A DNA stretch of 32,021 bases from a virus (Duplodnaviria; Heunggongvirae; Uroviricota; Caudoviricetes): the IMG/VR virus record IMGVR_UViG_2531839667_000012; one strand, written 5' to 3'. The position numbers and the translations under genes are program-made. Below are positions 5,101 through 20,663 of this stretch, piece by piece. Numbering within the stretch: position 1 is the first letter of the stretch; each line of letters opens with the position of its first letter. The notes beneath the pieces are model-generated. The model was not told where the DNA came from. It saw only the letters and a program-made list of their open reading frames with translations, and did not search any database.

Positions 5101-5466
5101 ATGTCAACCGAGAAACAGGAAATATTTTACATTATTGGGGCTAGGTTGCGAGAAGAACGTGAGCGACTTGAGAAGAGCCAGAAATTTATGGCTGAGGCAC
5201 TTGGGGCGGATATCAAAACATGGAACAACTATGAGCGGGGGGCATCGGTGCCTGATGCTCATAAATTAACCATTATAGCGGCAGTGGGTGTAGACGTTCT
5301 GTATGTTCTGACTGGCAACCGCACGCCTGTAGTTACGTTGTCCAGTAAAGAGAGTGTGTTGGTCGAAAATTACCGTTCTGCTACGCCAGAACACCAGTCC
5401 ACCCTTGACACGGTTAGCGCTGCGCTTGCGCAACCGGGTGTAGGGAAGAAAGCTGGAGGGGCGTAA
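5101..5466 (+). CDS. XRE-family helix-turn-helix regulator (candidate immunity repressor / operon regulator)
   Basis: 121 aa; N-terminal IGARLREERERLEKSQKFMAEALGADIKTWNNYERG is an HTH_XRE/Cro-C1 pattern; AGGAAA upstream; stops 5 bp before the next gene. Confidence 0.8.
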   Translation: MSTEKQEIFYIIGARLREERERLEKSQKFMAEALGADIKTWNNYERGASVPDAHKLTIIAAVGVDVLYVLTGNRTPVVTLSSKESVLVENYRSATPEHQSTLDTVSAALAQPGVGKKAGGA

Positions 5467-5470
5467 TTTT

Positions 5471-5905
5471 ATGTTTAATACAGTATCTCTTATTATTGTT
5501 GTGATTTTGCTATGTGCTGTCGTTTCAGCTCTTATTACTCAGAAGAGAGAAAAGAAAAAAGGGAGCGTAGATAAAGTTAGTGATGAAATTTTACGTATCA
5601 GGTCTCTTGGGAAAAAACAACCGCTTTATTATTCTAACGCAACCACAAGATATGAAGAAATACCGCCGTCTGTTCAAAAAAATAGAAAAATTAATATACT
5701 GAAAATAGGAAAAGTAAAATATATCGCTTTCAGTTACATAGATAGTAAAGGTGATTTTACTCACCGTGAGGTGGATGTTTCATCTATAGATAATGAATAT
5801 TTACAAGGGTATTGCCACTTAGCTAAAGAGTATAGAACATTTCGCCTTGATAGGATTCAGGGGGATGTTATTTGTAGAGATACAGGGGAAGTTATTTTAA
5901 ATTAA
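5471..5905 (+). CDS. Membrane-anchored WYL-domain protein (N-terminal TM helix, C-terminal WYL-like ligand-binding domain)
   Basis: 144 aa; hydrophobic N-terminus VSLIIVVILLCAVVSALI followed by KREKKK; C-terminal YIAFSYIDSKGDFTHREVDVSSIDNEYLQGYCHLAKEYRTFRLDRIQ resembles the WYL signature; strongly AT-rich. Confidence 0.6.
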   Translation: MFNTVSLIIVVILLCAVVSALITQKREKKKGSVDKVSDEILRIRSLGKKQPLYYSNATTRYEEIPPSVQKNRKINILKIGKVKYIAFSYIDSKGDFTHREVDVSSIDNEYLQGYCHLAKEYRTFRLDRIQGDVICRDTGEVILN

Positions 5906-5929
5906 CGATAAATATTAAGTGAGGATGTT

Positions 5930-6331
5930 TTGAATACATATAATTTATTTATTAGTCATTCATGGAAATATAATGATACATATGAATCATTGGTACGTCT
6001 TTTAAAAGGAAGAGGATATTTTGATTTTAAAAATTACTCAGTACCAAGAATAGATCCTATCATTGGTGCTAATAGCCATTCAGCTTTATATTCAGCAATT
6101 CAAAATCAGATGCGACCGTCTCAGGTAGTTTTGATTTTAGCCGGTGTATATGCATCATATAGTACTTGGATTGATGCAGAAATAAGGATAGCCAAGGATT
6201 GGAAAAAGCCAATTATCGCTATTGAACCTTGGGGATCTGAGAGGACATCCAAGGTAGTAAAAGATGCAGCGAACAGAATTGTAAAATGGAACTCAGATAG
6301 TATTGTTAAAGCAATTAGAGAGTTGGCATAA
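5930..6331 (+). CDS. Minimal TIR-like domain protein (predicted NAD+-processing signal generator)
   Basis: 133 aa; begins LFISHSWKY (TIR betaA-like) and contains YASYSTWIDAEI, resembling the TIR SxWxxxE catalytic-glutamate motif; TTG start with GAGGA upstream; AT-rich. Confidence 0.6.
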   Translation: MNTYNLFISHSWKYNDTYESLVRLLKGRGYFDFKNYSVPRIDPIIGANSHSALYSAIQNQMRPSQVVLILAGVYASYSTWIDAEIRIAKDWKKPIIAIEPWGSERTSKVVKDAANRIVKWNSDSIVKAIRELA

Positions 6332-6341
6332 GGATTAACTG

Positions 6342-7307
6342 ATGAGAAAGGCTCTGTTTGTTGGGATTAATGAATATGCGGAAATTTCTCATCTTGCGGG
6401 ATGTGAAAATGATGCTATGAAGATGTCTGCGGCATTGTCCAGACATGCGGATGGGCGTCCTAATTTTGAAGGGAAAGATTTGATTCACCGTGAGCAGATG
6501 CCTGTAACTAAGGTATTGCTTGAGCAAGAAATTCAGACTTTATTCAGTGGTTCAGCAGATATAGCTTTATTATTCTTTGCTGGGCATGGGTATTTTGATG
6601 AAAATATAGATGAAGGGGTTATCATTCCTCATGATTACTCTTCTCATCAAAGCAATGGTGTGAGAATCAGTGATATCATGCTATGGGCATCGAGAGCAAC
6701 CAATATTAAAAATAAAATAATAATACTAGATTGCTGTCAGGCGGGCGCTGCCGGACAAGTCAGGAACTTAAGAGGTGGAGACTCCATTCTTGCTGATGGC
6801 ACAACAATATTAACCGCATGTCAGCGTGATGAATATGCGCAAGAGCAGGATGGTCAGGGTATTTTTACAGCCTTAATGTTGGAGGCTTTATATGGCGCAG
6901 GTGCTAATATATTGGGGCATGTAACACCCGGTAGTTTGTATAGCTTTGTTGACCAAGCATTAGGTGCATGGGAGCAGCGACCGGTATTTAAAACAAATGT
7001 ATCCAGATTCGTAGTGCTAAGAGAAGTCGGGCCAAGAATCCCGTTAGAAACATTAAGGCAATTACCTGATTGGTTTGCTAGTGGTAGTGCTGAATATCCT
7101 CTTGATCCTAGTTACGAGCCTGATTCAGGAGCACCAAATGAGGATAATGTAAGGATATTTCGGCAATTACAAGCCTGTAATCGTCATGGCCTTGTTGAAC
7201 CTGTTAACGCAGAACATATGTATTATGCAGCGATGAATTCAACTGCATGTAGATTGACCGCTTTGGGAGCCTATTATAGAAAACTGGCAGAGAAAAGGCG
7301 TTTTTGA
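6342..7307 (+). CDS. Caspase-like protease (peptidase C14 / metacaspase-like His-Cys dyad) with C-terminal domain of unknown function
   Basis: 321 aa; KALFVGINEY start, FFAGHGYF (His-Gly) and IILDCCQAGAAG (catalytic Cys) in caspase order and spacing; AAGGA SD 7 nt upstream; AT-rich. Confidence 0.8.
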   Translation: MRKALFVGINEYAEISHLAGCENDAMKMSAALSRHADGRPNFEGKDLIHREQMPVTKVLLEQEIQTLFSGSADIALLFFAGHGYFDENIDEGVIIPHDYSSHQSNGVRISDIMLWASRATNIKNKIIILDCCQAGAAGQVRNLRGGDSILADGTTILTACQRDEYAQEQDGQGIFTALMLEALYGAGANILGHVTPGSLYSFVDQALGAWEQRPVFKTNVSRFVVLREVGPRIPLETLRQLPDWFASGSAEYPLDPSYEPDSGAPNEDNVRIFRQLQACNRHGLVEPVNAEHMYYAAMNSTACRLTALGAYYRKLAEKRRF

Positions 7308-7332: not shown

Positions 7333-8436
7333 TCAATCCAGCCCTAGCTCACACTCCACCGCCGTCCCATACCCACTGCTGTTATCCAACGTATGCACGC
7401 ACCGCGTAATCACCCACGCGGTGCCGTCAATCTCCGCCTTAAACCCCTTCACCTGCACCGACAGTTCCGGGAACAAATCGGGCCGTCCGCGCGCAAGATT
7501 CAGGCTGAACGTTGCCGCGCCGCGCTGTAGCTGCTCCCACGCGCTTTTTGCCGCTCTGTAGGCGTTATTTTTGTTGGCATAGGTGTGGCGCAGCACCTTG
7601 ATATTTCCCTCTTCGCCAACCATCACGTTATCAGCATTGAATGAGGCGTCTGACGGCGGTGATTCTGTTGGTTGCGTTTGTGGACGGTTTTTCCGTGTCT
7701 TGCGCTTCATGTCAGTGGACTGCTTTTTTGCCTGCCGTGTATCCAGCCAGTAGGCCGTCACACCGGTATACGCCTCCCTGTCCGCGATGCTGAACCGGTG
7801 GCTGTCGCCGTCCTCGCGGGTAATGGTTGCGACCGGCAGCGGTTTGCCGCTGGCACTTTTACCGGAACCTGTCGGCATTAGCAGCAGAGCATCATTTTTC
7901 ACGCAGGCGATAGCGCCGTGCAGTTGCGCCAGCCGGGTCAGGAAGGAGGCATCGGATTCGTTAGTCTGGTCAACGTGCTCAATGGCGATCCCAGCCAGCT
8001 CGCCGCTGACGGTTGATTCCAGCTTATGACGCGCCGCCACGGTTTGCACAATCGCGCCCAGCGTCACATCATGGTAGCTCTGTTCCCGTTTAACGTTCAG
8101 CGAATCGCGGAAATCGGCGCTGCGGGCGCGGAGGCTGAGTACGTCCGGTGCGCCGCTGTGCTCCAGTTCGTCCACTGTGAAGACATTCTGGTGCATCACG
8201 CCGTCACCCTTCCAGCCCAGAGAAACCGTTAGCTTTTCGCCCTTTGCCGGAAACGCCAGCAGGCCGTCGCTGTCGTCCAGTTCGAGCTGCAGTTCGTCGG
8301 CCTCAAAGCCCCGGTTGTCGGTGATACGCAGGCTGATTAAGCGGTTGTCCAGATTCCGCGTAATGTCCTTACCGTTCAGCACCACGCTGTACTCCGGCTG
8401 CGGCTGGGCGTTTAAGAGTGCGTTTAACATCGTCAT
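7333..8436 (-). CDS. D: P2 gpD-like tail protein (late control gene D)
   Basis: 367 aa, sequence and position (after U, before ogr) match P2 gene D. Confidence 0.85.
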   Translation of the reverse strand: MTMLNALLNAQPQPEYSVVLNGKDITRNLDNRLISLRITDNRGFEADELQLELDDSDGLLAFPAKGEKLTVSLGWKGDGVMHQNVFTVDELEHSGAPDVLSLRARSADFRDSLNVKREQSYHDVTLGAIVQTVAARHKLESTVSGELAGIAIEHVDQTNESDASFLTRLAQLHGAIACVKNDALLLMPTGSGKSASGKPLPVATITREDGDSHRFSIADREAYTGVTAYWLDTRQAKKQSTDMKRKTRKNRPQTQPTESPPSDASFNADNVMVGEEGNIKVLRHTYANKNNAYRAAKSAWEQLQRGAATFSLNLARGRPDLFPELSVQVKGFKAEIDGTAWVITRCVHTLDNSSGYGTAVECELGLD

Positions 8437-12678: not shown

Positions 12679-13857
12679 TTACACGGTGGTGGCGATGGAT
12701 TCAGCCAGATTGACCAGATAGCGGTCAGTGATACGCTGGCGGAACATCAGGTTTTCCAGCGGCGGCACCGGGGTGTAGTCGTAGTCGATATACGCTTTAC
12801 CCGCTTTCAGGATGTCCGGCGTGTTGGCGGCGGGATCGAACCATGCGGAACCATCGACGATGTAGCCGTTGCCTTTCAGTTCGCGGAATTTGGCGTTCAC
12901 GCCTTCGATAATGTCGCGGAACAGAGAAGCGTGTTGCGGTTTATCTACCGCCCAGAAGTGGGCGTCGGCGATGGTATCCGCCAGCACCTGCGCGGTGCGG
13001 GTGTAGTTCTCAAAGGCAAACAGCGGATCGGTGCTGCAGGTGCGCGATCCCCAGAAGCGATAGCCGCCGTTGCAAATCAGCGTGGTGACGTCGTGGCTGT
13101 TGAGGTAATCGGAGTCGGTGGCGGTGGACTGGAGATCCCAGAATACGCTGCGGGAAATGCCGGTCACGCCGTTGACGTCAACGTTGGACAGCGTTTTATG
13201 CCAGCCGATTTCTTCATCAATTTTTGCACGCAGGCCCACGGCGCGGGCGGTGGCGTATAGGGTGCGTTCGGCAGCAGCCTGCGTATCAAAGCCGACAAAA
13301 TCCGGCCAGATAATCATCGCCTCCCGCGCACCGAGCTGATCGCGATACAGCACTGCCTCTTCTTTGGTCTGCGCGCCGAACGCCGACAGATAGCTGAAGG
13401 CGCGAAGCTGTTGTGAAATGCTGACCAGTTCGGTGGCGACGGGCAGAGAATCCAGCCCCGGTACCGCCAGAATGCGCGGTTTTATTTTCAGTTTGGTTTG
13501 CGAGTCCAGCAGTGCCTTCATGCCGGTGTATTTCCCGGCTGGCGTGCTGCCGCCGATGATATTGGCGGTGGTTTCGGCAGCGGAGTCACCTTCGGCTACG
13601 CGCACGGCGACCACCACCGGCTGCGTCTGGTCGGCGATGGCATCCAGAGAGTGCGCCAGCGTACCGCTATCACCGGCTTTACCCAGCGCAGATCGCACGT
13701 CGGTTAACAGTACCGGGGTATCAAGGGGAAAGGTTTTTTCATCGGCGTCTGATCCGGTGCAGACGATGCCGATCACGGCGGTGGAGATGGTACGGATCGG
13801 GCGTACGCCTTCATTGATTTCAATAACGCGCGCGCCGTGGTGGTAGTCGGTTGCCAT
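12679..13857 (-). CDS. FI: Contractile tail sheath protein (P2 gpFI-like)
   Basis: Start chosen at ATG 13857 (MATDYHHG...) with GGAGG 9 nt upstream; 393 aa. Confidence 0.9.
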   Translation of the reverse strand: MATDYHHGARVIEINEGVRPIRTISTAVIGIVCTGSDADEKTFPLDTPVLLTDVRSALGKAGDSGTLAHSLDAIADQTQPVVVAVRVAEGDSAAETTANIIGGSTPAGKYTGMKALLDSQTKLKIKPRILAVPGLDSLPVATELVSISQQLRAFSYLSAFGAQTKEEAVLYRDQLGAREAMIIWPDFVGFDTQAAAERTLYATARAVGLRAKIDEEIGWHKTLSNVDVNGVTGISRSVFWDLQSTATDSDYLNSHDVTTLICNGGYRFWGSRTCSTDPLFAFENYTRTAQVLADTIADAHFWAVDKPQHASLFRDIIEGVNAKFRELKGNGYIVDGSAWFDPAANTPDILKAGKAYIDYDYTPVPPLENLMFRQRITDRYLVNLAESIATTV

Positions 13858-13927
13858 AGGGCTGGCCTCCATCAGGTCAATAAATGACGATGGTGGCACA
13901 GAGCGAAAAGGGCGGTGACGGCTTCCA

Positions 13928-13950
13928 CTTGTAACCACTGGCACTACAAG
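13928..13950 (-). promoter_or_regulatory. Ogr-box dyad (CTTGTA-N11-TACAAG) of the late promoter for the FI operon
   Basis: cttgtaaccactggcactacaag about 80 bp upstream of the FI start; same 23-bp pattern occurs at three other late-operon heads. Confidence 0.6.
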
Positions 13951-13962
13951 CAGAAGCGGTTT

Positions 13963-14721
13963 TTAATTCAGGATAATCAATTCTGATGTGGCGCTGGCTG
14001 GCTTTCCACCTACGGTATAGCGAATCCCTACCGTTGAGAATGTCAGGCCGTGGAAGATATCGCGCATTTCCGGGATGTCGTTAACCGAGATAATCATCCG
14101 GCCCTGCATGGTGCGCGCCAGCTCTGCCATACGCTGGTACTGCTCAAGGCCAAATGGTACGCCGTAGCCTTCGGTTTTCCAGTATGGAGGGTCGCAGTAG
14201 AACAGGGTATGCGGGCGGTCATAGCGGCGAATACAGTCGGCCCAGTCCAGATTTTCAATGCAGACGCGCGCCAGCCGCAGATGGGCGGCGGATAAATCCT
14301 CTTCCATACGCAGCAGGTTCAGGCGCGGCGGTGAGGTGGTAGCGGTACCGAACGTGCGGCTTTCCACTTTGCCGCCGAATGCCAGCTTTTGCAGATAGTA
14401 GAAGCGCGCCGCGCGCTGGATATCGGTCAGCGTTTCTTCCGGGGTGATCTGGAGCCAGCGGTACATTTCGCGGCTGACCAGCGACCATTTAAACTGGCGG
14501 ACAAACTCTTCTAAATGGTGCTGAAGTACGCGGTAGAGGTTGGTAACGTCACCGTTGATATCATTCAGCACCTCGGCCTGTGCGGGCTGTTTCATAAAGA
14601 ACAACGCCGCCGCCCCGCAGAACGGTTCAACGTAGCAGCGGTGTTTGGGAAACAGTGGCAGAATGTGTTTTGCCAGCCTGCGCTTACCGCCGATCCACGG
14701 AATAACGGGTAACGTATTCAT
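13963..14721 (-). CDS. dam: DNA adenine N6-methyltransferase, Dam/D12 class
   Basis: 252 aa; motif I EPFCGAAALFF and motif IV FYCDPPYW; located between tail-fibre assembly gene G and FI. Confidence 0.85.
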   Translation of the reverse strand: MNTLPVIPWIGGKRRLAKHILPLFPKHRCYVEPFCGAAALFFMKQPAQAEVLNDINGDVTNLYRVLQHHLEEFVRQFKWSLVSREMYRWLQITPEETLTDIQRAARFYYLQKLAFGGKVESRTFGTATTSPPRLNLLRMEEDLSAAHLRLARVCIENLDWADCIRRYDRPHTLFYCDPPYWKTEGYGVPFGLEQYQRMAELARTMQGRMIISVNDIPEMRDIFHGLTFSTVGIRYTVGGKPASATSELIILN

Positions 14722-15185
14722 ATTGTCAATTTTCCAGACCGACTGCTGACCAACGCATACAGCAGATTAGGAGACCAGCGCCAACTATCGCGCAGGTGCA
14801 GAAATTCGGCGCAGAACTCGCTGCAAAACAGGCGTTCCTGTTTACCCTGACTGAGTAACACAAAACCCATGGCGCCCAGCCAGTCGTAACCTTTATCGTC
14901 GTGCTGACGAAAAAAGGTTTCCAGTGCCAGCGGATCGGCGTTGATCGGGAGTAAATCCCATTTCTCAATCGGCAGCGGCATTCTCTTGCTGCGCACGCCT
15001 TTATCCCGTACCGATGATGAGTAACAGATAAACAGGCCATCCGGCAGGCGTTCGACCAGTTCGCAGTGAGAGTAAGGGCCGCGCGTGACCTGTCGCGTCA
15101 ACCAGTCGGAGAGCCGGGCAAGGCTGAAAAAGCGTTCAGCCCGGCCACGGTAGAACGCCATGTAAACCTGACTCATGGTTGCCAT
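14718..15185 (-). CDS. Hypothetical protein (moron), translationally coupled between G and dam
   Basis: 155 aa ORF overlapping the G stop by 13 nt and the dam start by 4 nt; no motif recognised. Confidence 0.5.
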   Translation of the reverse strand: MATMSQVYMAFYRGRAERFFSLARLSDWLTRQVTRGPYSHCELVERLPDGLFICYSSSVRDKGVRSKRMPLPIEKWDLLPINADPLALETFFRQHDDKGYDWLGAMGFVLLSQGKQERLFCSEFCAEFLHLRDSWRWSPNLLYALVSSRSGKLTI

Positions 15186-15880
15186 CCTGACGAGTAGTCG
15201 TAACCCATAACCGCCTGCACCTCCGTCAATGCTTCAACGGCGGCAATATGCTGCTGGGCAGCGGCGAACAGGCGCATATCGTGCGCCATTGTTTCGGTTT
15301 CAAACCGGGCGGCGATTTCGTTGGTCAGTTCAATCAGGTTGTGATTTTTGGTCTGCCACATTAAGCCTGCCGGTATTTGTTTAGCCACGCCCATTTTGGT
15401 GAGCGAGAGCTGCTGGATGCGGCTGTTAGCGTCGCTGTGGAAATGGTGATTATCGATGATGATGTAGTCGGCGGTGATTCGATCGCGATACTGCTTTATT
15501 TCCGCCACCTTTGCCTGTCGGGCTTTTTCGATATCAGGCCGCCAGCGTTTGCCGTCCCAACGGACAAAGGCGTTATCGGGCTTCAGCAGAGTGACGTTAT
15601 CCGGCAATGGCCCCAGATGATGAAGCTGTACCTCACTGCCCGCATCGGTATCAAACGCGGTTTTACCGCGATGATCTTCTACCGCAAGCCATGTTTCTCC
15701 GTTGAATGTCAGGGCAAAGCCGCTCTGGCATTCGGGCGGTTCGATAGTGGTACAGCATTCCGGTAAGCCGGTGTTGGGGGCGATATAGGCGTCGCTGACG
15801 CCGATAAATTCCTGAGTATCTGCCGCGTAGTTAAAGATGCGCAGGGTTTGCGGTTCGTCGGAAAATGCGAATGTGCTCAT
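15173..15880 (-). CDS. G: Tail fibre assembly chaperone (P2 gpG-like)
   Basis: 235 aa directly downstream of the tail fibre gene, overlapping its stop; conserved N-terminal region of Tfa proteins. Confidence 0.8.
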
Positions 15881-17760
15881 GCCAGCCTCACGATATAGTT
15901 GAAAGCGATATTTTTAACGGTGTTTTCGGCGTTCCCGGCGGCGTTCACCGTAATAGTGTGGCTGTGGGAACCCAAGGCGATAGTGTGGTTATGCGCGCCG
16001 ATAGTCAGCGAATGAGTATGAGCGCCGATGGCTACTGTGTGAGTATGGACACCGTCTGTACTGGTTCTGAATTTGTAGTTATCCCAGTCTGTGTCTGCAG
16101 ACCCCTGATTATTACGGGTACTGTCGAAGTAACCGTGACGCCCACCGCTGGCTTCACCCCATCCGCTGTCGTGGTTGTGAGCACCGGCTGACGCTGTTGA
16201 TTTTGTCCCGTAGTCAAACGCGCTGGTATTTTTAGTACCCAAATCAGTGGAACTGGCGGTTTTAGTGCCTAAATCCGTGTTAGCGGCGCTGGCGGTGTGA
16301 CCATGAGATTTAACGCCATCCTGTTCCTGAGACAGTATCGTGCGTCCGCTGGCGGGCTTCCCCTTGATTGTCCAGCCTCGCATATCCGGGATTACACCGG
16401 AGGGGTAAGCGATTGCCAGTTTAGGGTAGGCGGTTTTATTGAAGGACTGACCGACCATCAGTGCATAGCCGCTAGGGATGGCATCGGATGGCCATGGAAT
16501 GGGAGCGCCTGCTGGGTAGAGTTCTTCTGGTAAGTTTCTGCTATTAAAATCTCGCCGCCAGCCGGGAGAGTATTGTGCTCCGTGATCGATATAGATAAAT
16601 TGCGCGTTGGCTATGCCTTTGGTCGATGTAGAGGGGGTAGTAATGCGGATTGTTTTTGCCGACTCAATACCCATGACCTCAATGACAGCGCCAGCCAGTT
16701 GAATATCGCCACAGCCTGTATCAGAAATGACTTTATTCGAGGCATAACTCCATGAACCTTTACACATCCAATAGGGGGTACTGAAAGCTCCCTGAACACT
16801 CAGCCAGCTTAGAAATTCAGTCGTAGTCCATGAGGCATCATTTCCACCAATAGACAGACTGCCGCTGAAGGCACGGCAGCGGCTATTGGCATTATCCATT
16901 ACTATTTTGACAGCCTTCGGTGTTGCGGCCATCGCCTCACTAACGTTATTGGTTTCGCTGTTAAGCTGGATTATCCCTTTGCGCATGGTGGTCGCATCCA
17001 GTGCGGTATATTTTCCATTAGCCAGATCGTAGGCCGCTTTCACGGCTTTAGGCGTGGCGGCCAGCGTTTCGCTGATACTGTCGATGGAGCTACTAAGCTG
17101 GACAATCCCTTTACGTGAGGTGGTGGCATCCAGTGCGGTATATTTTCCATTAGCCAGATCGTAGGCTGCTTTCACGGCTTTGGGCGTGGCGGCCAGTGTT
17201 TCGCTGATGCTGTTGGTCGCACTGCTTAATTGAGTAAAACCTTTGGCAGTTAACGTGGCGTCAGGATGGTTACGGGACTGCGCGTGGCGAGTCAGGCTTT
17301 CATCCACATACTGCCTCGTTGCCAACACTACGGCAGGGTCGATTTTCAGTTCCACGTTTTCCGTATGGGAGACAATCAACACCATGCGGATAATCTGCGT
17401 GCGACCCGAACCTTCGATTAGCTGCGGCTTGTAGGTTGGCGGGCAGTTGCCGACGGCAATCAGCCGGTCGTGCTCGTCGTACAGGCCAATTTCTCTGATC
17501 CACCATCCGCCTACGTCCTCCGGCAGCACCTGTTCGGCAATAATCTGGTTGGAGTTGTTAGGGTCAATACTGAGCGTATTCAGCGGTGCACGTCGACGTT
17601 CGTTGACTAGCCGGGTTTGACCGGTCTCCGGCGTTGGCAGGTTACCGTTTCCGTCGCCCACGGCCATTTGCGTCAGATGAAGAGGTGAACCCTGTGTGGT
17701 GGCGGTCGCCAGCGCGGATTCGCCAGTAGTGGTTAATAGCGTGAAATAGGTAGCGCTCAT
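15877..17760 (-). CDS. H: Tail fibre protein (P2 gpH-like N-terminus, divergent receptor-binding C-terminus with His-x-His repeats)
   Basis: 627 aa; N-terminal region and [37 protein letters not shown] repeats as I recall them in P2 H; C-terminus [33 protein letters not shown]. Confidence 0.9.
16862..17257. repeat. About three tandem copies of a 132-bp coding repeat inside the tail fibre gene
   Basis: Near-identical DNA blocks starting at about 16994 and 17126 (two full copies), with a diverged third copy at about 16862-16993; they encode the 44-aa protein repeat. Confidence 0.7.
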
Positions 17761-18371
17761 GGGGCGATCCTTAGCGTATCAATCAGATGCAGCGCAGCCC
17801 CGCGGTAGTCACGGCCCACGCTGTATACATGTTCGGGAATAAAGGGATAAACGGTGAGCGTATCGCCGGTATAGTTCGTCGCGCTGAACCAGACGTATCC
17901 GTTGCTTTGCAGGCTGATCGCCAGTCCGATTAAGTGGCGTGAACAGGGTTTTGCATCATCGATCAGGCGCTCCAGCTCTACATACATCTGCTCGGTGATG
18001 CCCTGTTCGCGCACGCCGACTTCCAGCGCGAAGGTGCCGGGAATACCTTCCGGGCGCAGTTGCCACCATTCGGTTACCCGGATAAGGAAACCGAGCGGTT
18101 CCACCGCACGCTGCAGTGCGCCGATGGTGCCTTTGTGCTGATGGATGTAGAAAGAAGCAGCAATCACCTGCCGCTTGGTATCGGCTGGCCAGTTTTCATC
18201 CCAGCGGTCAACGGAAAACGCCCATGCCAGATAAGGCAACAGCGCGGCGGGGCAGCTATCCGGTTGCCACAAGCTACGCAGCGGGACTGGCATTTGTTCA
18301 GTCAGACTGCCGGTTTGCGCCAGATTCTGCTCCAGCGAGCTGGCATTGTTGGGGAGCAGGGAGCTATTCAT
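17757..18371 (-). CDS. I: Baseplate protein (P2 gpI-like)
   Basis: Start chosen at ATG 18371 (MNSSLLP...) adjacent to the J stop; the longer ORF overlaps J by 77 nt. Confidence 0.8.
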
Positions 18372-19275
18372 CGCTTCCCCCGATGGCAATTTGCCATCCG
18401 GTGCAGTAGCTGGCCTGCGTTTTGTTGATAATGACATCAACGGCAGGGGAGAGCAGTTCTACGCGCTGAACGCCGGTGACATGCAGTGCGGCGTAAATCG
18501 CGCTGCGGCGAATATCGCGCCCGATTCGATGCTGGTCATTGACGTAGCTTTGTAGCCGCTGCTCGGCGGCCTGCCGAATGGGTTCCTGCTCCGGGCCGGG
18601 ATAGCAATAAAGTACGGCATCAATCTGATACGGGATCACTTCGGCGGACTGAATGGTTGGGCGATCGCCTACCGGACGAATATCAATATCGTTCAGGGCG
18701 GAATCGACTATCGCCAGCAGTTCTGCGCTGGCCAGCCCGTTGCCTTCGCGGGAGAGTACCGACACGGTGACGTAACAAGGATAGGGGCTGATAGCGGAGA
18801 CGTCGGCGATACGCCCGTCTGCGCTGCGGGCGTGATATTCGTAGGCGGCGGTCGGGCCAGCGACGGACAGACCTTCAAACGCCTGCTGTGCGCGCATTCG
18901 TAAATCGCTGTCGGATTCATAAACCGGATCAACGGGCGGTATCGCCGTACTGTCTCCGGGCGAGATTTGCAGGCGAAAAACCTTAAAGTTAGCGACCAGA
19001 TTATCCAGATCGCGCCCGGCGGCATGGGCCAGCATATTAGCAACGGCGGCTTCATTAATGCGTACCCGCAGCGCCATCTCTAAGTAAGTATTTTCCTGCA
19101 ACAGCTTGACGAAGGGTTCTGATTCATAGCCCAGCGTGCGGGTAACTTCTGCTTGCTGTTCGGCAGGATACAGGCTGATAAAGCGCTGCTTGCGGGCGGT
19201 GAACAGGGTTTCAAAATCGACTGTTTCCACTACATCGGGGATCGGTAACTGGCTTAAATCGGCCAGCGCGCTCAT
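18364..19275 (-). CDS. J: Baseplate wedge protein (P2 gpJ-like)
   Basis: Start chosen at ATG 19275 (MSALADLSQLPIPDVV...), overlapping the W stop as ATGA. Confidence 0.85.
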   Translation of the reverse strand: MSALADLSQLPIPDVVETVDFETLFTARKQRFISLYPAEQQAEVTRTLGYESEPFVKLLQENTYLEMALRVRINEAAVANMLAHAAGRDLDNLVANFKVFRLQISPGDSTAIPPVDPVYESDSDLRMRAQQAFEGLSVAGPTAAYEYHARSADGRIADVSAISPYPCYVTVSVLSREGNGLASAELLAIVDSALNDIDIRPVGDRPTIQSAEVIPYQIDAVLYCYPGPEQEPIRQAAEQRLQSYVNDQHRIGRDIRRSAIYAALHVTGVQRVELLSPAVDVIINKTQASYCTGWQIAIGGSDE

Positions 19276-19622
19276 GAACGTCTCCTGTCGATCGGAATGG
19301 AGAATGCCCACGGCTGGCCGGGGATATCGGTACGTTCGGCTTCAATAGTGACGCTGAGATCGGCATTTTCCGCAGCAAAGTCCACGCCGATAATCTCGAG
19401 GCGGGGTTCCCAGCGCGTCAGCGCCATAACCACCGCCGACATCACCCGCAGTCGGGTACTGCCATCGTTGGGCTGGTCGATCAGGTTACCGATCAGTGAG
19501 CCATAATCGCGGCGCATCACGCGCGTACCTACCGGCGTGGTCAGAATATCTTTTACGGATTGCTTAATGTGCAGCTCGTCGCTTAACGCTCTGCCGGTTT
19601 CGGCGTTCATACCGAGGTACAT
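19272..19622 (-). CDS. W: Baseplate protein W (gp25-like)
   Basis: 116 aa; position between V and J; gp25/GPW-like sequence. Confidence 0.85.
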   Translation of the reverse strand: MYLGMNAETGRALSDELHIKQSVKDILTTPVGTRVMRRDYGSLIGNLIDQPNDGSTRLRVMSAVVMALTRWEPRLEIIGVDFAAENADLSVTIEAERTDIPGQPWAFSIPIDRRRS

Positions 19623-20221
19623 TACTGTGGCCCTCCGGTATTGCTACCCCCGCGCTCCACGCCTGTGTGCGTGTGGGTATGGACGGTGACGCCGTTGGAG
19701 GTAAAACTGCCGCCGCTGTGAGTGTAAGCGCCTTTAAGCGTGCCGCCTTTTTTAACCGACAGCGTGGTGGTTTCCAGATGCTGGGTGCAGACGACGAGCG
19801 GTGTATCCAGCGTGACGAGGGTACTGGCTTCGACCAGTGCGGTCTTGATGCCGGTGGCTTTTAACGCGCTGGAGCGCGGATCATATTCAATCACCGCACC
19901 ATCGGGGTAAATGGTGTGGTGAACCTGTTCATCCAGCATCGGGGCGGGGTTGGCGTCAGAGTAAATGGCCGGAAGCGCCACGGCGGTGGTTAACTCTCCG
20001 CTTAAACAGAGCAGTAACACCTGTTCGCCTGTTGATGGCCGCCACCACGTCCGGGCATCACCGGCGCGTAGCGTCAGCCACGGTATCCAGTTGGTGGTCA
20101 GTTCACCAGTGTGAATGCGTACTCGATCGCCCTTCACCTCTTCAACGGTGCCGGTACGGATCAGGTTTTCAATGCGCCGGTGCAGCTCGGCGATGTTGGC
20201 TGGGTGGTTTGCGTCGCTCAT
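19622..20221 (-). CDS. V: Baseplate spike/hub protein (P2 gpV-like)
   Basis: 199 aa; first gene after an Ogr-box promoter; C-terminal Gly/His/Thr-rich tip. Confidence 0.85.
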   Translation of the reverse strand: MSDANHPANIAELHRRIENLIRTGTVEEVKGDRVRIHTGELTTNWIPWLTLRAGDARTWWRPSTGEQVLLLCLSGELTTAVALPAIYSDANPAPMLDEQVHHTIYPDGAVIEYDPRSSALKATGIKTALVEASTLVTLDTPLVVCTQHLETTTLSVKKGGTLKGAYTHSGGSFTSNGVTVHTHTHTGVERGGSNTGGPQ

Positions 20222-20327: not shown

Positions 20328-20663
20328 TTAACCGTGCGCAGCCTTCATCAGTGTATCGTTAATCCACTGGTTAACGCTTTTACCGGAGACTTCTGCCGCA
20401 ACGTTAATGGCAGAGTGAATTTCAGGTGGAATACGCAGGCTGATTTTTCCGCTGGCCGGACGCAACGGCTCCCGGCCCCGTTCCTCGCAGTAAGCCAGAT
20501 AGTCGTCTACCGCCTCTTCAAACGCTTTACGCAGATCGGCAACATTATCGGCATGAAAGCCAATGACATCCCGAATGCCTGCAACGTGACCAACAATGCA
20601 TTGATCTTCATCGCTGTATTCAATTTTTGCGGCATAGCCTCTATATGTCATGGTATTCATCAT
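20328..20663 (-). CDS. hicB: HicB-family antitoxin (RNase H-like fold N-domain plus C-terminal RHH DNA-binding domain)
   Basis: 111 aa; YRGYAAKIEYSDEDQCIVGHVAGIRDVIGFHADNVADLRKAFEEAVDDYL and C-terminal KISLRIPPEIHSAINVAA RHH-like segment; overlaps hicA by 4 nt. Confidence 0.85.
   Translation of the reverse strand: MMNTMTYRGYAAKIEYSDEDQCIVGHVAGIRDVIGFHADNVADLRKAFEEAVDDYLAYCEERGREPLRPASGKISLRIPPEIHSAINVAAEVSGKSVNQWINDTLMKAAHG

Follow-up and report, generated by a model that had tools for sequence, protein, structure and literature searches.

The question raised by this locus is what role is played by the repeated His-x-His (H-x-H) motifs found at the end of a P2-type tail fibre, and whether these motifs bear on host range. 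The first-pass annotation of the 32,021-nucleotide stretch of viral DNA analysed here (the window) had proposed that they coordinate metal ions in a trimeric fibre tip. Our analysis makes it highly probable that the C-terminal 214 residues of the fibre form a tip of the T4 gp37/lambda Stf type, i.e. a metal-riveted trimeric needle that makes contact with the receptor by a loop and depends on Tfa for its folding. This tip is a well-understood and very common module, found here in a mosaic combination that is new; its distal loop is rare, and the optional seventh site has the variant H-x-Y.

The fibre gene (15877..17760, minus strand, as are all its domains) encodes a 627-aa protein at the position of P2 gpH, and its mosaic nature is apparent from the ORF and its Pfam matches (Phage_tail_fib at residues 1–150, three stretches of Phage_fiber_2, and Collar at 418–465). 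The N-terminal domain (residues 1–150, 17311..17760) is a P2 gpH-like baseplate-attachment domain (PF12571, E 2.6e-61). It is followed by a shaft (residues ~169–295, 16876..17256) with the three stretches of Phage_fiber_2 repeats (PF03406). Within these repeats TRF detects a 132-bp tandem duplication (16962-17244, period 132 x 2, about 2 copies with 84–90% matches). Since the nearest fibre of an E. coli prophage has 74 aa fewer, shaft length varies by gain or loss of repeats. The next domain (residues 296–410, 16531..16875) is a Mu S'-like shaft/knob domain, recognized by a phmmer match to 8JU3 (E 1.2e-60 over residues 188–410), which is the Mu gp52 tail fibre S/S' (PMC11821841). The tip itself starts with a collar domain (residues 414–485, 16306..16521), equivalent to T4 gp37 D10 and near-identical to gp37 812–882 in the 2XGF alignment; the Collar match (PF07484, residues 418–465, 37.8 bits versus a cut-off of 24) lies directly upstream of the needle. 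The descending arm of the needle (residues 486–530, 16171..16305) is made of HGH at 486–488, three 10-residue xDxGTK repeats and HNH at 528–530. It leads to a hypervariable distal tip loop (residues 531–571, 16048..16170), which contains H542-G-Y544 and is the predicted receptor-contacting end. The ascending arm (residues 572–601, 15958..16047) carries four G-x-H-x-H boxes with a 9-residue spacing, and corresponds to the repeat originally noticed. The C-terminal strand (residues 602–627, 15880..15957) is almost identical to those of T4 and lambda, with a mean identity of 0.91; its T4 counterpart returns to the collar, gp37 1010–1026 being part of D10 (PMC6957217).

The fibre gene sits between a gpI homologue (17757..18440) and the Tfa gene. 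Its upstream neighbours are homologues of gpI (PF09684), gpJ, gpW and gpV (PF04717, PF18715, PF18946), with the sheath and tube genes further on, and a parallel gene order and annotation is found in a related E. coli prophage. Because of these neighbours and of the same order in the annotated E. coli prophage, we consider the element to be a P2-like (Peduoviridae-type) prophage with its fibre at the gpH position. The N-terminal attachment domain, the shaft repeats and the position in the V-W-J-I-H-G operon are those of P2 gpH/gpG, and P2 gpH is 57% identical over residues 29–314 of the fibre, while a longer P2 variant aligns to residues 24–409. In contrast, the C-terminal half of P2 gpH is unrelated. 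The proposal that the tip differs from that of P2 is thus borne out, as P2 gpH has zero H-x-H and no significant alignment past residue 314 (409 for the P2 variant). A receptor-binding C-terminus of the P2 gpH type was rejected, since there is no similarity to the C-terminal half of gpH and no significant similarity between the Tfa chaperone and P2 gpG.

The peptide on which the first-pass annotation relied is an exact match in the minus-strand translation of 15877-16060, at the C-terminus of the 627-aa ORF. It was said to hold five H-x-H units at regular spacing; the translation gives only four, HTH at residue 572, HTH at 581, HNH at 590 and HSH at 599. Their regularity is confirmed, as they sit exactly nine residues apart. 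Two more units are present upstream of this segment, HGH at residues 486–488 (16297-16305) and HNH at residues 528–530 (16171-16179), which gives a total of six H-x-H for the fibre, and the half-motif H542-G-Y544 is also part of the tip. The last 214 residues contain 13 of the 19 histidines of the 627-aa protein. The expected number of H-x-H is 0.53 for the whole fibre and 0.72 for the C-terminal 214 aa alone, and in both cases six was reached in 0 of 20000 shuffles (composition-preserving for the whole fibre). The H-x-H pattern is therefore real and not due to chance. An antisense ORF in the same region (15865..16191, plus strand) was taken as a shadow of the fibre reading frame.

The suggested comparison with T4 gp37-like tips reveals a full-length homology. 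Residues 414–627 match 2XGF, the T4 gp37 tip (residues 28–242), with E 3e-68 by phmmer (HMMER), and BLASTP against gp37 813–1026 gives 56% identity over 213 aa (E 2e-69). Both proteins (in 2XGF, D10 is the collar and D11 the needle) have the collar, the descending xDxGTK repeats and the G-x-H-x-H boxes, the last three of which are spaced by 9 residues, and their C-terminal strands are nearly identical. The T4 gp37 tip carries seven H-x-H, at 883, 915, 929, 966, 980, 989 and 998, against six here, which align with T4 883, 915, 966, 980, 989 and 998. The tip-most iron site of T4, H929-S-H931, is replaced in this fibre by H542-G-Y544, the spacer that separates it from box 2 being of 11 residues in both; the far end of the needle must therefore differ from that of T4. 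HMMER and L-INS-i (the latter with diverse representatives) agree on this register, in which HNH528 is equivalent to T4 HTH915, and H542/Y544 to T4 H929/H931; a first MAFFT --auto alignment was rejected for the register of the boxes, as it put T4's second and third boxes out of register. Other differences from T4 are one extra 10-residue descending repeat, the lack of a 14-residue spacing on either arm, an unrelated distal loop, the location of the tip on a 627-aa P2-type fibre instead of the 1026-aa gp37, and the presence of a Tfa-like chaperone (235 aa, carrying DUF4376) in place of gp38.

In T4, the H-x-H motifs of three chains coordinate seven iron ions in the needle core, one ion per motif, according to PMC6957217 and to PMC11705849, which cites Bartual 2010. 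The same two papers report that changing H929 or H931 to Ala abolishes plaque formation. T4 tip residues 929–959 are critical for the receptor, and the LPS and OmpC receptors are contacted by residues of the tip loop, the iron ions being buried in the needle core (PMC6957217). Homology to 2XGF, whose H-x-H bind seven irons, supports the original view of a metal-coordinating trimeric tip; it is from this homology that we infer metal binding and the alignment of the histidines on the axis.

A similar tip, 57% identical along its entire length (E 4e-93), is found at the C-terminus of lambda Stf (orf-314), and the gene order, fibre then tfa, is the same. The lambda protein differs by the presence of eight H-x-H and by a longer needle and loop, and it is a siphovirus side fibre, whereas the protein studied here is a baseplate fibre of a contractile tail. 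At the DNA level the fibre region is too diverged for such a comparison: megablast against phages detected nothing but one segment of 122 bp in lambda stf (82.8% identity), and protein searches were therefore needed. Among other P2-like phages, with which a comparison had also been suggested, Peduovirus P24A7b, Salmonella phage STYP1, SEN1 and Escherichia phage Chuche combine a P2-type N-terminus with a gp37/Stf-type tip, as does the fibre of the window; these Peduoviridae fibres are 54–64% identical to it over the tip or the whole fibre, and their distal loops differ. More widely, 686 phage records contain the tip according to tblastn, among them side fibres of lambdoid phages, long fibres of T4-like phages and further Peduoviridae (P24A7b, STYP1, Chuche), and a full HMMER scan finds the module in 1506 representative clusters at E <= 1e-3 (240 at 1e-30), on proteins of 214–1599 aa. 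Among sequenced phages, none is above ~68% identity over the tip, the differences being in the loop.

Over some 230 homologous tips, all 12 histidines are essentially invariant. In 100 distinct close tips all 12 are invariant, with the exception of one H-to-Y in one sequence, H486, H488, H528 and H530 being invariant in all 100. In a 62-sequence alignment the glycine located two residues before each pair is invariant too, which defines the motif as G-x-H-x-H; in the ascending arm there is no variation, or almost none, in the boxes G570/H572/H574, G579/H581/H583, G588/H590/H592 and G597/H599/H601. Among 135 diverse tips, taken from cluster representatives at 50% identity, 132–135 retain each of five boxes, 100 retain the sixth (572/574), and 134–135 have the histidines of the descending arm.

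The architecture of the needle leaves a trace in the lengths of its two arms. In 233 tips the boxes were split into descending and ascending sets, and the span of each arm was measured. The two spans co-vary strictly, taking the values (32,18), (42,27), (52,36), (62,45) and (72,54) residues, with a parallel series (46,32), (56,41) where a third descending box is present. The fibre of the window belongs to the commonest class, (42,27), which accounts for 113 of the 233 tips, and T4 belongs to (46,32). Owing to this strict co-variation, the addition of a 10-residue xDxGTK repeat to the descending arm goes with that of a 9-residue His box to the ascending arm, and the series makes the 9-residue spacing a constant of the ascending arm in this family. 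Such a matching is what an antiparallel hairpin needle would require, so that the co-variation of the arms (+10 down and +9 up per rung) provides a confirmation of the hairpin-needle architecture that is drawn from sequence only; it also offers a simple way of sorting tips of this type into classes according to how many metal sites they have. The AF2 model of residues 414–627, made with the 62-sequence alignment, has an overall pLDDT of 66 (83–93 in the collar, 50–70 in the needle and below 50 in the loop); it is a model of a monomer, and the intertwined trimer is beyond what a monomer can reproduce. With this model as a query, Foldseek against the PDB placed 2xgf_A on top (E 5e-16, TM 0.29, the TM being low because the monomer is not straight), together with weak fold matches to the gp12 structures 1ocy and 5iv5. 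The top rank of 2xgf_A is in line with the sequence homology, to which it adds nothing.

On the model of T4, the tip would assemble in the following way. Three chains would first form the collar domain; each chain would then run down the thin needle, turn in the variable distal loop and run back, its C-terminus thus reaching the collar again. Every level of the needle would receive one G-x-H-x-H from each chain, facing the core, and the six imidazoles would octahedrally coordinate one metal ion, which is probably Fe2+, as in T4. Six sites are predicted, two on the descending arm (H486/H488 and H528/H530) and four on the ascending arm (H572/574, 581/583, 590/592 and 599/601), and, if occupied, this ladder of metal ions would rivet the intertwined trimer. 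The hypervariable loop 531–571, at the far end, would contact the host receptor, and a chaperone of the Tfa/gp38 family, encoded by the next gene downstream, would be needed for the trimer to fold. As for the half-motif H542-G-Y544, it might bind metal as a hybrid site of three His and three Tyr, or cap the needle without metal, and, together with the long loop, define an undescribed tip geometry and receptor specificity, a proposal to which we attach a low probability. A second, independent type of H-x-H metal site is present in the same tail: the gpV-type baseplate spike (19622-20221, minus strand) ends ...GVTVHTHTHTGVERGG, which Pfam recognizes as the GpV Apex motif (PF18946, E 8e-08), a type of site that is known from the P2 gpV spike.

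The tail fibre assembly chaperone (235 aa, 15173..15880, minus strand) has a start that overlaps the fibre stop (ATGA). It is composed of an N-terminal half similar to lambda Tfa (41% identity, E 5e-39) and to T4 gp38 (32%, E 3e-13), and of a DUF4376 domain; it also has a weak Caudo_TAP match and matches phrog_105, 'tail fiber assembly' (E 2e-43). In work by Montag and Henning in 1987 and by Hashemolhosseini et al. in 1996, lambda Tfa is said to be able to replace gp38 in T4 fibre assembly. The Tfa/gp38 homology of the gene downstream of the fibre indicates that tip and chaperone travel together. In the prophage of E. coli strain 24A16CRGN010 the tip is almost identical and Tfa is 99.6% identical, and the shaft is different and 74 residues shorter. 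The G+C content is 58–60% in the sheath/baseplate backbone (within 12679-20221) versus 49–55% in the middle and tip of the fibre and in Tfa (15173-17300), a drop that is consistent with a horizontal acquisition of the fibre–Tfa cassette. The best nucleotide matches of the sheath are Ralstonia P2-like phages (73.5%). Because of these matches and of the G+C contrast, the backbone appears to be that of a divergent P2-like lineage, equipped with an enterobacterial fibre cassette.

Several other genes of the window are worth mentioning. Between Tfa and the sheath gene, where P2 has the conversion gene fun(Z), lie (13963-15185) a D12-class N6-adenine DNA methyltransferase (13963-14721, minus strand; PF02086, E 6e-29) and a 155-aa ORF (14718-15185, minus strand), which matches phrog_1128, of the category 'moron', and has no Pfam or PADLOC match. 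Just beyond gpV, a HicB-family antitoxin is encoded (20328-20663, minus strand; PF05534, E 3e-18), and a HicA/HicB pair is annotated at the matching position in the E. coli relative. Four co-directional genes (5101-7307, plus strand) adjoin gpD (7333..8436, minus strand). Their products are an HTH protein (5101-5466), a protein of the WYL-like type (5471-5905), a TIR-like/ThsB-like protein (5930-6331), which PADLOC matches to ThsB (E 5e-12), and a Peptidase_C14 protein with a caspase domain (6342-7307), matched by Pfam (E 1e-14) and by PADLOC as 'caspase' (E 6e-18), and from these matches the group looks like a TIR-plus-caspase anti-phage defence cargo of the prophage.

The distal loop is the part of the tip in which this fibre is unusual. 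Residues 531–571 (41 residues, between boxes 2 and 3) have a mean identity of 0.16, compared with 0.8–0.91 in the collar and C-terminal strand, and loop length and sequence vary freely among tips. In the present fibre the loop is unusually long (44-residue spacing), acidic and aromatic (DTDWDNYKF), and has been met in no more than a few E. coli prophages, the only proteins that share it being P0001 (96%), that of strain 24A16CRGN010 and, in part, P0004. A string search with the tip loop finds segments shared only by P0001 and, partly, P0004, and blastp-short of the loop against the fetched proteins gives no match. The distance from His box 2 to H542-G-Y544 is exactly 14 residues, which is the place of the third descending H-x-H site in T4 (929/931); 69 of the 233 tips (~30%) have H-x-H at this +14 position, and this fibre and P0001 are the only ones with H-x-Y.

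How far could other explanations account for the histidine repeats? The fibre end is repetitive and compositionally simple (G, S, T, A, H), and its H-x-H could be a chance or low-complexity trait of a Gly/Ser/Thr/His-rich sequence, with no specific role. This reading has practically no chance of being correct: it is refuted by the shuffle and conservation tests, as six H-x-H are never obtained by shuffling and every histidine is invariant in hundreds of homologues next to a loop that is free to vary, and the block is moreover homologous to a solved metal-binding structure. The nature of the metal is a different matter. The related collar-proximal His site of T4 gp12 is modelled with zinc, and sequence alone cannot tell the metal, so that the boxes could bind, e.g., Zn2+ or Ni2+, or be partly occupied, and still be structural rivets. 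We regard this as unlikely, because the closest solved homologue, 56% identical and with the same G-x-H-x-H boxes, has iron at all seven sites.

Two further explanations would give the boxes a role outside the rivet. Tetart et al. are said to have proposed, in 1996, recombination at the His boxes of gp37, and the DNA of the boxes could mainly provide short homology patches for swapping the tip loop, the repeats being then important for evolvability and not for structure. The presence of the module on fibres of 214–1599 aa in lambdoid, T4-like, P2-like and other phages, the lower G+C content of fibre and Tfa compared with the backbone, and the E. coli prophage that shares the tip and Tfa but not the shaft all point in this direction. 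However, what is conserved is the amino-acid sequence, together with the geometry of the metal ligands, and TRF gives no DNA-level tandem repeat in 15958-16047. A predominant role in recombination is thus possible but doubtful, and exchange at the boxes would complement the structural role, not replace it. Much less probable still is the 'Ferrojan horse' idea discussed for H-x-H-bearing fibres (PMC11705849), in which an iron-loaded fibre acts as a bait for host siderophore/iron receptors and H-x-H takes part directly in receptor recognition. The burial of the T4 irons in the core and the contacts made by tip-loop residues with LPS and OmpC (PMC6957217) argue against it, as does the invariance of the boxes across phages with different hosts, which is unlike a specificity determinant. 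The metal-riveted needle of the gp37/Stf type remains the reading that we favour.

This reading has direct consequences for the use that can be made of such motifs. The idea that the presence of H-x-H may help to predict host range is not supported: the histidines are an invariant scaffold in hundreds of fibres with different hosts, so that their presence alone does not predict the host. The histidines identify the tip family, and, as judged from its variability, the loop 531–571 is likely to be the specificity determinant. Nothing here challenges current understanding of these fibres, and for annotation purposes the protein should be labelled as a gp37/Stf-type His-box needle with a Tfa chaperone. 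In conclusion, prediction or engineering of host range should target residues 531–571 and the cognate Tfa, and not the histidines.
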